Positions 2,591-29,593 of a DNA stretch of 64,000 nt are shown here, in pieces. Location of the stretch: assembly GCA_964016885.1 (NCBI GenBank), contig OZ024753.1, forward strand, positions 6,386,001-6,450,000, read 5' to 3'. The notes under the pieces were generated by a model. It was not told the origin of the DNA and made no database searches. It saw only the letters and a program-made list of their open reading frames with translations. A program made the translations under genes and the position numbers. This DNA comes from Eledone cirrhosa (Eukaryota). Positions within the stretch are counted from its first letter, which is position 1, and each line of letters opens with the position of its first letter.

Positions 2591-2628
2591 CGAGAACAAT
2601 TGTTTCACCTGAACGGATCCTCAGCTCG
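2591..2628 (-). ncRNA. Minimal type I hammerhead ribozyme, family F1
   Basis: Minus strand reads CGAG-CUGAGGA-UCCGUUCAGGU-GAAA-CAAUUG-UU^-CUCG: perfect 4-bp stem I, intact core, palindromic stem III ACAAUUGU; abuts (TA)n at ~2635. Confidence 0.75.
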
Positions 2629-3107
2629 AAATGGATATATATATATATATATGTATATATATAATATATACTTACATGATTTTCTTTATAAATTAACACG
2701 GAAGATGGTTTTGTATCTGTTATTAGGTAGATCAAATGATTTGGGCACGAGATATTTTATATAAAGCGATTTAAAAGTGTTTTATAATGAATTAATGATA
2801 AATAGAACGATTACTATATTTGGAAATGATCTAGTGAAGTTTGGGTCACTCTGTATTTATGCAGTTAAGGGAATCAATTAATACGACATGTCTCTGCTGT
2901 CAGGATTTCATATTAGATTTGTTACTAATTGGAAGAAACCTGGTTTTATACATTTAATATAATGATATATTTTGATTTTTCCGTTATATATGTTCTCTTC
3001 AAATCCTAAATCACTCAAATTTTAAAGCTCATGATAGGTCTAGATCGTTCGATTATATATTTTTTTTATCTTAAAAATGTTTACTTCTTTTATTATGCTT
3101 TAATATT

Positions 3108-3291
3108 ATTGGCAGTATCGGTAGAGAGTCGGACGCCATGCTTTGACGCATAGAGTTACGGCCCTTGCCATTCTGTGTTCAAATCCCGCCGAGGTTTACT
3201 TTACCTTTCATCCTTACGAGGTCGATAAAATAAAGTACCAGTAATACACTGGTAATTTGCTGGCCTTGTGCCTAAAGTAGAAACAATTATT
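3108..3291 (+). mobile_element. tRNA-derived SINE family A, full length
   Basis: A-box-like TGGCAGTATCGG, B-box GTTCAAATCC, central CCTTTCATCCTTACGAGGTCGATAAAATAAAGTACCAG, tail TGTGCCTAAAGTAGAAACAATTATT; many copies in the window. Confidence 0.9.
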
Positions 3292-3619
3292 AAGATGGAG
3301 AAACGTTAGAACGTCGGATAGAATGCTTTGAGTCATTCGTTCCAGCTCGAGTTCAAATCCCATCGACGTAAACTTTCCCTCTCATCCTTTCATACATAGG
3401 AAATCTGCTGTACTCAAGCTGAAGATCGTTGGGCTCCATGATACATAAAATACCCAACAAACGCCGTATGGTAGTATGGTACCCCTACCATTGGTCCAGG
3501 GGTTACAGGATCATACTATGCCTTACCGATATATTATATTTTCAGACGTAATTATAGCACCAGCAGCACAAGCAATGGATCGTATAATGCATCGTTGATG
3601 AATAGTTTCTCAATCCAAA

Positions 3620-25620: not shown

Positions 25621-28600
25621 TATTATATATATATATATATATATGTTTAGTCATCTATCATCTCTATCCACACAAATATTGAATATCATTAATGTTGTGA
25701 ACCTTCCCCCTGTTGCTATTAGGTCTATTTTGGGAAGAACACACGCACGCGCACAGGTGTGTGTAAACATAAATAAGGCTGTTATTTCTCGAATATATCC
25801 ACAAAACACCGAACAAACACCCCAAAGTAAACGTCATCATACAGTCTTAAATCCACCCTCCAAATTTGCAAACCAAACGCGCACTCATAAATATATTGGG
25901 TGGCTTTTGTGGTCCAAGTGTGTTTGTGTATTATGTGTGTGTATTATGTGTGTGTGTCTATTGGTTGTGTGTGAGTGCGTACATGCGTATTAACCTTATA
26001 TATATTCAAACACGTTCGGTGTTTTTCTTTAGATCTTCGTTCTCTCGTAAATTAACACCTATACATCCAATTAATAAAGACAGTAATGATGTTTGGATCC
26101 CCGTATATTACATAATGTATATCATTGACCAGTTTAATAAGAATATTACACCTGTCATGATTTTATCAATGTGAAGTGTGTGTGCTTATGTACATTACAC
26201 GTATATGATATACGAGCGTCCAGGAAACCCAGCTCGAAACATTCCTATGCTCCCAAAAATACTCAATAGATATCAGGCGGTCACTTAACGTTTTTTTCAT
26301 AGGGCAGCCATGTCACCCACCATTCAGTTCATTTGCATCAATTTTATACATGCGAGAGGCATCCGTATTCAATCAACCTTATATGACTTCCGAATTACAT
26401 ATCTAAATAAATAATAGCCAATTCAAAACAGGCACCTTCAAGTGATTCACATTTCAGCAGACAGGAATTATACACTCGAAAGTATATGAGAATTCATTTG
26501 ACATCATGTTTATAATGTCCATTCACAAAATGTCTCGCATATTCTCTTCAAATCTTCAATACAATCAATTGAATAACTTTTTATTATTTTCTCTAATTTA
26601 GAACAAATCTCGTTGTAAAATATTATTTGTGTTTAGAAGAAAAATAAACACATTTGCAGTCAAACCATTATGATGATATTTCAATAAAATTCACAAATGT
26701 AGCTTTAGAAATAAAGAAATTTCGAGAATGAAATCCCTGAAGACTCGTGACAATGTATTACGTTTAAATAGGATCCCAATATTTCGAAATTTAGTCCATT
26801 AATGTGAGTTGAAGAGCCCATGTGACCTTCCTTTGCAAGCTGTTTCCTGTTTTGGTTCAATAATAGCAGTTAGTTTAGTAGAGATTCAATGGAAACTTTC
26901 CATTCCAACATCTTCAACCTACGACACAGAAATTACGTTTATTTATTTATACTTTTAAATTGTTTTCCTTATTTTTCATTTCTATTCTTTTGCTGAGGGA
27001 ATGCAACTTGTGTAACATAGTTAGTAAATGAAATAACATCAATGATAAAAGATATTTTAGTAACAATTGCTTTATTCTTTTTCATTTTGTCATCATTTTA
27101 GAAGGTTTCTGTGTGTAAAGACCTGTGTTTATGCTAATGGCTGGTTTCATTGAGAATGTTTTACTTCCACTTTTACTGAAGATTCCTAAAGGTCAGAGAT
27201 ATCTCAGAGAAAAACTACCTTAAAAAGGTCTTTTAAATGTTTGTTTTCACTTGTTTTTTTTTTGTTTTTTTATTATTATTTTTTGTTCAAGTATTCTCAC
27301 GTGCAATGTTGTAAGGACGCTGTGTTGTTATTCAGTCTTCCACAAATATATATTATGTCTTATGCCCGATTGCATAATCATAGTTACGTAGATACGTAGA
27401 CGCGCACATACATTGTTACACACACACACACACACACACACACACACACACACACACATGAATATTATATATATATATGAATATTATATATATATATATA
27501 TATATATGTGTATATAAATGACATATATATGTGTATATAAATATTATATATATATGTGTATATAAATATATATAAATATTATATATGTGTATATAAATAT
27601 ATATATATATGTGTGTGTATATATATGTATATAATATGTGTGTGTGTATAAATATGTATATAAATATTATATATATATATATTATATATATATATGTGTG
27701 TGTGTGTATATAAATATGTATATAAATATTATATATATATGTGTGTGTGAGTCTAAGTTGGTATTGTGTGAATGTGAACATATGTGTGTTTATATCTATG
27801 TAGGGATGTACTCATAGGAGCTCAGATATATTTTTTAAGTATTTCTGAATGTTGCATTAAATTGAGAAGAATCTCAGAGGAACTTTAGGGAATAACTTGC
27901 CATATTATTTCTACACACACTTAGCCTGCTTTTGGAGAAACTAATAAAACTCAGATGCCTGTGAAGGGAAAGTATACACATGGTGTTCTAGCAATACCTT
28001 TATATTTCTTATTTAATTTTAATATTTAGCCAGAGAATAATGTGTTGTTATGTTTCATCTTGAGTATTGAAGTAGAGAAAAACACGACTGACGATATTAC
28101 TACTTGTACGCAGTTATATATTCTTTACATTCCATTTTATAAACTCTCGAGTCAACTCGTGAAAAGCGGTTACTTGACTTGCTAGATAAAGAAGCCTTGT
28201 GCTTTACAATTTTATATATCGTTTAATAAAGAGGAAGCGTCGTGTTCAGTGCGCATTTCAGCAGATTCGTGACTTATAGTGCTATGCGTATGGCATCCTG
28301 AACCTAAGGTTTTACCGAAATATTGCAAGATAATATACTCTGCTAAAGCCACCCAATAGATGACTTGCGATATTAAACTCGGTGAACTTTTATCTCAATG
28401 ATCCTAATGAATGAGATATCTACGGCTGCCGCATTAACCGGTGAAACTGTTCCATATTAACACCTGAAACTGACCTTTGTTTGCCGTTAGCCTGGTCAAT
28501 TATGTTGCTTTTATTTAGTCCAGATCAATGATTTGAGAAACAGACCCTCACCCTCATTCCAAGGTACCAAAAAGATATCATCGGCATTGCACTTTCTCCC

Positions 28601-28692
28601 ATGAATAAACAGCAAAACAATGAAAAAAAGTATTGAAATGCAGTGGGATATCTACTCAGTATGGTGATGTCCATAAATATATATTGTAAAAC

Positions 28693-29593
28693 GGAAAAAT
28701 GAAACGAAATTTCATTTATCACTCTTAGTACGGCTGTTACTTAAATATAAGTATGTATACGTACATACATATATGTATACAGACGTACAGTAGTATGTAT
28801 ATATATATATATGTACGTATGGATTCACCGAACATTTATTATAATGATAGGTGTGTTTGTAAACAAACATCCAGAATTAAGCCGTACAGTGTCTGGCAAC
28901 CATCGTTGCTCATTTGTTCAACCCTGACAAAGAAACGCTGTACTAGTTTCAAGCTTATTAGCTATCGTCAGCAACGTATACCTTCGTGCCAGATGATTGA
29001 ACGTCTGAAAGTATATACTTTCTGTATGCATATTAACGTCTGAGCAGCCTAATTTGCATATCGAGTGAATCCATACGTACATATATATATATGTGTGCAT
29101 GTATGTATATATATATATACATACTACTGTACGTCTGTATACATATATGTATGTACGTATACATACTTATATTTAAGTAACAGCCGTACTAAGAGTGAGA
29201 AATGAAATTTCGTTTAATTTTTTCCGTTTATCGTTTTCGATACCCCGGCCGATTAACTCACTCGATATGCAAATTAGGCTGCTCAGCCATTAATATGCAT
29301 AAGGAAAGTATATACTTTCAGACGTTCAATCATCTGACAGGAAGGTATACGTTGCTAATAAGCTTGAAACTAGTACAGCGTTCCTTTGTCAGGGTTGAAC
29401 AAATGAGCAACGATGGTTGCTAGACACTGTACGGCTTAATTCGGGATGTTTGTTTACAAACACACCGATCATTATAATAAATGTTCGGTGAATCCATACG
29501 TACATATATATATATGTGTGCATGTATGTATATATATATATATACATACTACTGTACGTCTGTATACATATATGTATGTACGTATACATACTT
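28693..29593. mobile_element. Family F10 element with double inversion and 16-bp flanking direct repeat
   Basis: 28689-29068 is mirrored by 29065-29229 (short) and 29258-29596 (long); ATATATATTGTAAAAC at 28677-28692 and 29594-29609. Confidence 0.8.
28936..28976 (-). ncRNA. Minimal type I hammerhead ribozyme, family F10
   Basis: CGUUG-CUGACGA-UAGCU(AAUA)AGCUU-GAAA-CUAG-UA^-CAGCG; palindromic stem III ACUAGU. Confidence 0.82.

Follow-up and report, generated by a model that had tools for sequence, protein, structure and literature searches.

Several hammerhead ribozymes in a stretch of the Eledone cirrhosa genome (64,000 nucleotides of contig OZ024753.1, hereafter the window) carry U·U at positions 10.1 and 11.1, where an R-Y pair should close stem II. 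The question is whether this mismatch is decay, a tolerated substitute for the pair, or a brake on cleavage. Our analysis finds that U·U is the fixed genome-wide state of five abundant retrotransposon-borne families. It is a variant that has already been published and is likely tolerated. What is novel, by comparison with U·U, is a family of over 21,000 copies with A at the normally invariant U4 of the core.

The closing position of stem II

Every stem with U·U that a first-pass annotation had named in F1, F2, F6, F7 and F10 was found in the window, as were A·A in F11 and G·U in the F6 copy at 56846 (Table 1). The two F7 copies belong to a single inverted insertion (98.7% identity over 308 nt). 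Stems I, II and III, with A15.1-U16.1 and an NUH cleavage site, are found except in the F2 junction copy at 6568, and the F1, F6, F7 and F10 family patterns have the type I core, CUGANGA and GAAA. In place of the R10.1-Y11.1 pair, the families have U·U, A·G, C·A or A·A.

Table 1. Hammerheads in the window. The core coordinate is that of C3 in copies with U·U; element types are predicted from motifs.
Family	Span	Strand	Core coordinate	10.1-11.1	Features
F1	2590..2629	-	2624	U·U (2617, 2607)	type I, end of Hydra-type PLE; 2-bp stem II; palindromic stem III
F1	11942..11981	-	11976	U·U	second copy; stem I decayed in part
F2	6557..6591	+	6568	U·U (6575, 6587)	CUGA core from fold-back inversion junction centred 6569; without stems I and III
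F2	6747..6797	-		U·U	native-type copy; A4; stems I-III; private G8 change
F6	18786..18836	-	18830	U·U	core decay at G8; inverted partner of 19205-19253
F6	19205..19253	+	19210	U·U (19217, 19228)	end of Hydra-type PLE; 4-bp stem III
Further family	19582..19641	+		G·U or A-U	long irregular stem II; adjoins Hydra-like ORF (locus L014)
F7	20088..20126	-	20121	U·U	left arm of inverted insertion centred near 20160
F7	20199..20237	+	20204	U·U (20211, 20222)	end of Neptune/Nematis-type PLE; palindromic 4-nt stem III
F9	24513..24561	-			second copy; C4; 2-nt insertion
F9	25401..25447	+	25405	C·U	end of Hydra-type PLE; C4
F10	28935..28977	-	28971	U·U (28964, 28951)	~424-bp tandem retrozyme-like unit
F11	32101..32152	+	32109	A·A	A·A in 3/3 copies examined
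F6	51196..51246	+	51202	U·U	C3 changed to U
F6	51427..51476	+	51432	U·U	at 5' inversion junction
F6	56846..56886	-		G·U	old copy; cleavage site gone

Exact-pattern searches for the five U·U families gave about 83,000 genome matches together. Among the first 100 matches listed for each family, U·U occurs in 94 for F1 (5,388 matches), 97 for F6 (24,836), 98 for F7 (6,078), 100 for F10 (25,570) and 99 for native F2 (21,231); these listed matches lie nearly all on a single contig (C1), and the patterns require an intact core. The family consensus is U·U, not G-C or another R-Y pair. In a 78-copy F6 class, defined by a pattern one letter longer, 74 copies have U·U. Loop 2 of F6 varies while the mismatch persists: by hand count among the matches listed, 100 copies hold 19 distinct loop tetramers, U10.1 deviates in 2 and U11.1 in 1, and paired stem positions deviate in 0-6. 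Control matches were zero in every genome pattern search. A hammerhead scanner gave 45 matches across 590 kb sampled from the genome at round coordinates, and none in the reversed sequence or in five shuffles.

The C·U that the first-pass annotation had assigned to F9 is true of the window copy at 25405(+) and is a minority state, seen in 1 of 100 matches listed; the family has mostly A·G, with C4 in 94 of 100.

Strict descriptors had been expected to miss such cores. At its gathering score the Rfam model Hammerhead_1 (RF00163) indeed gave no match on six loci (L116, L095, L031, L038, L092 and L136), and all ten Rfam genome matches examined have G-C. The expectation does not extend to the published descriptor for hammerheads of Penelope-like elements (PLEs), searches with which would catch U·U because it permits an extra N10 and N11. 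An Rfam scan of the window by E-value showed no hammerhead family among the 150 listed of 244 matches, and these were driven by microsatellites. (TA)n also swamps a repeat search of the window.

Folding predictions are weak and speak against these folds: minimum-energy structures of F1, F2, F6 and F7 are no better than those of shuffled sequences (z -0.7 to +0.6); for F10, z is -2.6. A loop 2 pseudoknot considered for F1 was dropped, its complementarity being confined to one window copy. The GAU/UGA segment presumably resembles a box C/D kink-turn; the canonical stem does not follow it.

Carrier elements and the number of origins

The hammerheads of F2, F6, F7 and F9 flank ORFs with RT and GIY-YIG domains, and F1 comes after the end of such an ORF; terminal repeats of the elements are 98.8-100% identical. 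At locus L038, RVT_1 and GIY-YIG matches lie between two F7 copies, and the RT, the C-terminal GIY-YIG domain, DKG and a CX2-5CxxC linker identify the predicted F7 carrier as a Neptune/Nematis-type PLE, either of the two. The ORFs of F2, F6 and F9 have DKT rather than DKG and RWR rather than RWK, and a CxCX5C linker precedes the C-terminal GIY-YIG domain in all of F1, F2, F6 and F9. By these motifs, F1, F2, F6 and F9 are assigned to Hydra-type PLEs. The F1 partner is an ORF C-terminus with CxCX5C (loci L099 and L092), that of F6 a 758-aa ORF with a weak GIY-YIG match (locus L095, E 0.019), and at locus L136 two identical F9 copies flank an 832-aa open ORF. F10 forms non-coding tandem arrays of 420-500 bp units, each with a type I hammerhead (loci L031-L034); tandem units of a few hundred base pairs are the layout of a non-LTR retrozyme, to which its sequence would assign it. 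In the window F10 units cover 28689-29574, and the plus-strand unit has lost its core.

The five families had been taken as independent, which does not hold: F1, F2 and F6 would all ride Hydra-type PLEs, F7 a Neptune/Nematis-type PLE and F10 a tandem retrozyme. Since the first three share Hydra-type PLEs, where U·U is the commonest published state, the mismatch would have at most about three origins. The clade assignments come from motifs, and because the only tree, drawn within the genome, does not resolve F1, F2 and F6, we infer rather than observe a shared descent of their U·U. No DNA similarity was found between family flanks apart from one nested F2 fragment. Position 10.1-11.1 is G-C, A·G or G·U in other Hydra-like elements of this genome and varies between G-C, G·U, U·U and G·A in related families.

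These elements share with the Hydra-clade PLEs of Craig 2021 (PMC8557442) an element-end type I hammerhead, DKT, the CxCX5C linker and (TA)n flanks. By our count, U·U occurs in 14 of the 25 Hydra-clade hammerhead rows of File S2 of that study, from Hydra, sea cucumber and copepod. Craig 2021 classes these hammerheads as canonical, with both U's in core columns, and the accessible part of the paper holds no comment on U·U that we could find. The minimal PLE hammerheads of Cervera and de la Pena 2014 (PMC4209133) likewise lie in PLE terminal repeats, have a palindromic stem III and cleave as dimers, but A9 is followed there by an additional nucleotide and G10.1-C11.1 is conserved, whereas the families described here have a symmetric mismatch without the extra nucleotide. 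Minimal PLE-type hammerheads occur in this genome too (15 of the 45 scanner matches).

Tolerance and its alternatives

Doubt had been expressed as to whether U·U had been described; it is in print in Perreault 2011, Cervera 2020 and the supplement to Craig 2021. The accessible part of Perreault 2011 (PMC3088659) reports natural U10.1-U11.1 at the start of stem II as rare cases, in contrast to the dominant repeat families here, and cites Ruffner 1990 for U·U as the best-tolerated mispair. In axolotl, the non-LTR retrozyme HHR_Amex2 numbers about 60,000 copies with U·U; it cleaves itself and forms circles (Cervera and de la Pena 2020, PMC7229834). Its cleavage is 22% versus 6% in a paired sister family, the sisters differing otherwise too. 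F10 and a sixth family, a 310-bp retrozyme, resemble HHR_Amex2 in being high-copy tandem repeats with a type I hammerhead and U·U at the base of helix II. They differ in unit length (~424 and 310 bp versus 350 bp). For HHR_Amex2, cleavage, which is better as a dimer, and circular RNA have been shown. The 310-bp family has 10,780 genome matches, with U·U in 66 and A-U in 34 of the first 100 listed, and both subfamilies form long arrays. This retrozyme therefore indicates tolerance of U·U rather than a need for it. To specialists U·U by itself is ordinary, and its recurrence across a PLE clade has seemingly been tabulated without comment.

It is quite probable that these are type I folds, carried on PLE ends and by one tandem retrozyme, with U·U fixed as a tolerated pair substitute that still allows self-cleavage. 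The mismatch would stack like a normal base pair beneath the sheared A9·G12 pair, which adjoins 10.1-11.1 (PMC11300833). With a stem III that is short and palindromic, F1, F7 and F10 would cleave mainly as dimers in tandem transcripts, and dimer cleavage could free unit-length RNA for reverse transcription. U·U may have come to F1, F2 and F6 by descent within the Hydra clade; the retrozymes could get there from A-U or G·U by a single change. The core has loosened further in two lineages of Hydra type, to A4 in F2 and C4 in F9, and these ribozymes would be slow or non-cleaving. F2 and F9 elements have both amplified to thousands of copies.

The first-pass annotation had called the variant tolerated or attenuating. 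If U·U were selected to slow cleavage, full-length RNA would survive for translation and reverse transcription. Such selection is suggested by the fixation of U·U, as strong as at paired positions, both in F6, where it spans ten or more loop subfamilies, and among F2 subfamilies (87 of the 100 old copies listed), by its majority in Hydra-clade hammerheads of several phyla, and by a one-step change to A-U that is possible yet rarely taken in F6, F7 and F10. However, G-C families are equally abundant in this genome (17 of the 45 scanner matches), and because A-U and U·U arrays of the 310-bp retrozyme coexist and the axolotl U·U family cleaves more than its paired sister, not less, attenuation is not favored over tolerance, the half of the proposal that stands; we consider it improbable. 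Mutational decay of G-C in an AT-rich genome, or chance matching, is scarcely credible. The window is 30.5% GC and several of its copies are decayed (in the cores at 18830, 51202 and 6792), but the family tallies refute this explanation: U·U occurs in 94-100 of 100 matches listed per family, as expected from the earlier remark that it is kept between copies, with adjoining G-C pairs retained and no control matches.

A further possibility, to which we give little weight, is that the ribozymes are largely non-catalytic, the fold acting as a signal to the reverse transcriptase of its element or riding along as a passenger. This would better fit F2 and F9, in which young elements carry A4, or C4 with a purine mismatch. 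A mutational scan measured low activity for single mutants in the CUGA turn (PMC9901934), Naiad PLEs have spread without hammerheads (PMC8557442), and inversion junctions cluster on the ribozyme (17 pairs per 100 F6 rows among the matches listed). Against it, F1, F6, F7 and F10 keep the canonical core, in axolotl a U·U family has activity, and a natural U4C of a viroid, cited in Perreault 2011 (PMC3088659), retains sufficient activity. Covariation is seen in the stems of F9 (92.9% paired, a level reached in 0 of 500 shuffles, versus 25-40% when slid), which fits both a catalytic and a non-catalytic fold.

Position 4 of the core

F2 and F9 lack the invariant U4 of the CUGA turn, and these position-4 families matter more than U·U. 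What hammerheads do in endonuclease-bearing PLEs is described as unclear in PMC8557442. In F9 the turn reads CCGA, with an A·G mismatch, next to an intact ORF. The native F2 core is CAGA (U4A). Its type I fold is complete and is carried by a young PLE, found in full at locus L116; A4 is present in all of the first 100 matches listed. Older F2 copies have A4 in 87 of 100 and U·U in as many among the matches listed, but because the search pattern required the core, its conservation is not counted as evidence of selection. An older sister subfamily retains U4. At positions 4, 10.1 and 11.1 of F2, no alternative letter reached 5% in the contigs of two sequencing runs of one sample, a check that is not independent because the sample may be the assembly's own. 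In the F2 lineage 83.7% of cells are paired versus 21-55% when slid; covariation in the F2 alignment is not above that of shuffles (75-144 of 500), and RNAalifold recovers stem II alone.

All 25 Hydra-clade rows of Craig 2021 (PMC8557442 File S2) have U4, unlike F2 and F9, and a search of that supplement for the F2 and F9 motifs found no such element. U4A is absent from the accessible main text of Perreault 2011 (PMC3088659), and no report of a natural U4A core was found in the literature searched, in which key papers were partly covered. The CAGA and U·U pattern had 31 matches in viral contigs, none with stems.

The A at position 4 of F2 would likely slow or stop cleavage. Possibly, though we hold it doubtful, CAGA combined with U·U gives F2 an active core that is as yet undescribed, propped by an extended stem I, or else the F2 and F9 ribozymes have turned into a non-cleaving RNA signal. 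Either outcome would put the need of Penelope-like elements for self-cleavage to the test, and CUGANGA-based censuses would be overlooking whole families. A natural series exists in F2, made up of the U4 sister, the old A4 subfamilies and the young A4 burst, and the 310-bp retrozyme supplies a one-base A-U/U·U pair, so that short in vitro assays could tell tolerance, attenuation and catalytic loss apart.

The U4A variant had been masked in the first-pass annotation, which read F2 as UCCC..GGGU on a canonical core. That reading is a junction artefact. The CUGA form of F2 has 709 matches, and all 12 loci examined are inversion junctions, which rules it out as a canonical hammerhead; on inspection a type III fold at the junction is also ruled out, stem I failing to form. 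Fold-back junctions are thus able to fabricate a canonical hammerhead core.

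The stem II closing position across the genome

The window, which is G000:C13:6386001-6450000 of a 3.0-Gb genome, is 30.5% GC and rich in (TA)n. It holds more than 12 hammerhead-like motifs and no long coding ORF of note in its 64 kb. A core-and-stem scan recovered all of the stems named in the first-pass annotation, with U·U at the closing position of stem II (10.1-11.1) in two copies of F1, one of F2, four of F6, two of F7, and one of F10; F9 has C·U, F11 has A·A, and one F6 copy has G·U.

The mismatch had been described as kept between copies of five families. Genome pattern searches in which 10.1 and 11.1 were left free uphold that description: the family consensus is U·U, rather than a pair, in all five. 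Totals are exact-match lower bounds, and U·U was tallied by hand on the first 100 matches listed in contig order: F7, at least 6,078 matches (U·U in 98 of the first 100); F10, at least 25,570 (100); F6, at least 24,836 (97); F1, at least 5,388 (94); and native F2, at least 21,231 (99). The F6 pattern left the entire stem II unconstrained. Among its first 100 listed matches the loop takes 19 different tetramers, with deviations from U10.1 in 2, from U11.1 in 1, and from the paired positions in 0-6. Because the loop varies while U10.1 and U11.1 are as steady as paired positions, U·U is the state of the source elements.

Wider sampling with the scanner covered 59 stretches of 10 kb at round coordinates and gave 45 canonical-core hits, against none in reversed sequence and none in five shuffles. 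G-C closes stem II in 17 of these hits, 15 of which carry an extra nucleotide; A-U does so in 15 (11 of them from one single array), and the position is U·U in 9, G·U in 3, and G·A in 1. Since 9 of 45 hits are U·U, the mismatch is common in this genome, yet not dominant.

Interchange of closing pairs and published precedents

A sign that U·U is tolerated lies outside the window, in a 310-bp retrozyme (a tandem non-coding hammerhead retroelement) with 10,780 genome matches. The first 100 listed divide into 66 U·U and 34 A-U, both subfamilies form long arrays, and one A-U and one U·U copy are 97% identical over 110 nt. Arrays reach 28 units, with inverted starts. Related families have G-C, G·U, or U·U at this position. 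The position is freer in F9, where the first 100 listed matches give 66 A·G, 17 U-A, 12 C·A, 2 A·A, 2 C·C, and 1 C·U; the C-U first noted for F9 thus holds for the window copy but not as the family state.

Location, family state, fold potential, and A-U/U·U interchange are direct observations for these families. U·U hammerheads are reported to cleave (PMC7229834), and PLE (Penelope-like element) and retrozyme hammerheads with a short palindromic stem III to work as dimers (PMC6765202, PMC7229834). By analogy F1, F7, and F10 would likewise act as dimers, and the 4-bp stem III of F6 may permit monomer cleavage. The N7 of G10.1 assists binding of a metal ion next to A9, so that U10.1 may lower the rate somewhat.

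The axolotl family HHR_Amex2, with about 60,000 copies, is U·U (Cervera and de la Pena 2020, PMC7229834). That article reports monomer cleavage of 22%, versus 6% for the other axolotl family, still more cleavage by the dimer, and circles in vivo. The first-pass annotation had proposed tabulating 10.1-11.1 in published PLE sets; in our count of 25 distinct Hydra-clade rows of Craig 2021 File S2 (PMC8557442), one duplicate-strand row being left out, 14 are U·U (two sharing the same ribozyme), 7 G-C, 2 G·U, 1 U·C, and 1 A-U. The expectation that strict descriptors would miss such motifs holds for Rfam at gathering score, but the 2014 PLE descriptor permits an extra N10 and N11 (PMC4209133 supplement). 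The U·U finding is real, but already known and less independent than claimed.

Carrier elements and number of origins

The F6 hammerhead stands 5' of a 758-aa ORF, the 3.26 kb between F2 copies contains a 645+121-aa frame, an open 832-aa ORF lies between F9 copies separated by 4.17 kb, and F1 lies after the end of a related ORF. CxCX5C is present in the F1, F2, F6, and F9 proteins, and DKT and RWR in those of F2, F6, and F9; the Hydra-clade marks in section 11 of PMC8557442 are DKT and CxCX5C, with RWK in place of the RWR seen here. Protein identity is 52% between F2 and F6 and about 21% between F7 and F6. In a within-genome protein tree F9 and three other elements split off (support 94/99), and the branching order of F1, F2, and F6 is not resolved. 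The carriers' terminal repeats are 98.8-100% identical, and the insertions are therefore young. F10 occurs as non-coding arrays (420-500 bp) with the layout of a non-LTR retrozyme. The five supposedly independent families thus reduce to about three origins: F1/F2/F6 on Hydra-type elements, with F7 and F10 apart.

The Neptune/Nematis-type element of L038 carries an F7 ribozyme that resembles short-stem U·U ribozymes of Hydra-clade elements (PMC8557442 File S2); this F7 ribozyme may have been exchanged between PLE clades. In another abundant family stem I is 8 bp, stem II is long and irregular, and stem III is palindromic and rich in A/U; this family adjoins a Hydra-like ORF in locus L014.

Features located in the window and in fetched genome loci (L numbers)
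Feature	Location	Strand	Remarks
F2 copy without stems I and III	window 6568
Native CAGA F2 copy	window 6747-6797		
F2 fold-back junction	window 60306-60532		core deleted, then 3.4-kb (TA)n tract
F6 copy	window 56846-56886		G·U at 10.1-11.1
131-bp tandem repeat	window 50689-51122		3.2 copies; unit from common short interspersed repeat; directly upstream of two F6 copies
F6 5' inversion junctions	G000:C1; window 51407-51432; L100, L101		cluster 3-22 nt upstream of core
Long-irregular-stem-II family	window 19582-19641
Long-irregular-stem-II family	near window 16919	(-)
Long-irregular-stem-II family	L014, L057, L072, L078, L090, L097
Hammerhead-like motif, long stem II	L014:3250-3350		A·G at 10.1-11.1; upstream of Hydra-like ORF
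Open 832-aa Hydra-type PLE ORF	L136 (G000:C1:56974600-56979700)		identical terminal repeats; hammerhead with C4 and A·G at 10.1-11.1
310-bp retrozyme arrays	L056:6600-9750 region; G000:C1:36482098-36490617

Core position 4 and fold-back junctions

The main remaining point is a loosened core in two Hydra-type lineages, with U4A of F2 (core CAGA) foremost. The canonical CUGA core first assigned to F2 is a product of fold-back: the window copy lacks stems I and III, and all 12 of the 12 CUGA-core loci fetched, from 709 genome matches, are junctions at which the reading at the middle of a small palindrome switches to the opposite strand, turning A to U. The reading of F2 as a canonical CUGA hammerhead was rejected. 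The native core is CAGA in 100 of the first 100 matches listed, within a full type I fold having a 5-bp stem I plus distal helix, a 5-bp stem III, a CUU site, and a stem II of U·U followed by 3 bp. The F2 helices are 83.7% paired, versus 21-55% when slid; covariation in the F2 alignment is not above shuffles, and the ribozyme fold is not favoured when folding is unconstrained.

Older F2 subfamilies give 107 matches, and 100 of these include 87 A4, 9 U4, 3 C4, and 1 G4; four of the seven U4 copies fetched proved native, the other three being junctions. With position 4 masked, 22 copies split in a midpoint-rooted tree into a sister group of 3 U4 and 1 C4 and a group of 18 (16 A4, 1 U4, 1 C4), with support 97/98. 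Since U4 is present in every published Hydra row, A4 appears to be derived, to have survived two or more amplification waves, and to be younger than U·U.

F9 has C4 in 94 of the first 100 matches listed and in 9/9 diverged copies, the stems of which covary (92.9% paired, 0/500 shuffles as high). Among natural variants, U4C is already on record, and its in vitro activity is low. No natural U4A hammerhead was found in the literature and supplements searched, which did not extend to Lunse 2017, reportedly the most extensive study of variation in PLE hammerheads; a published case may therefore exist. Because CUGA-turn single mutants are described as weakly active in a mutational scan (PMC9901934), A4 is more likely to be crippling for cleavage than neutral.

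It is possible that reverse transcription folds back at small palindromes within the ribozyme. The F2 junctions fall within the core itself, and head-to-head pairs number 17 among the first 100 F6 matches listed.
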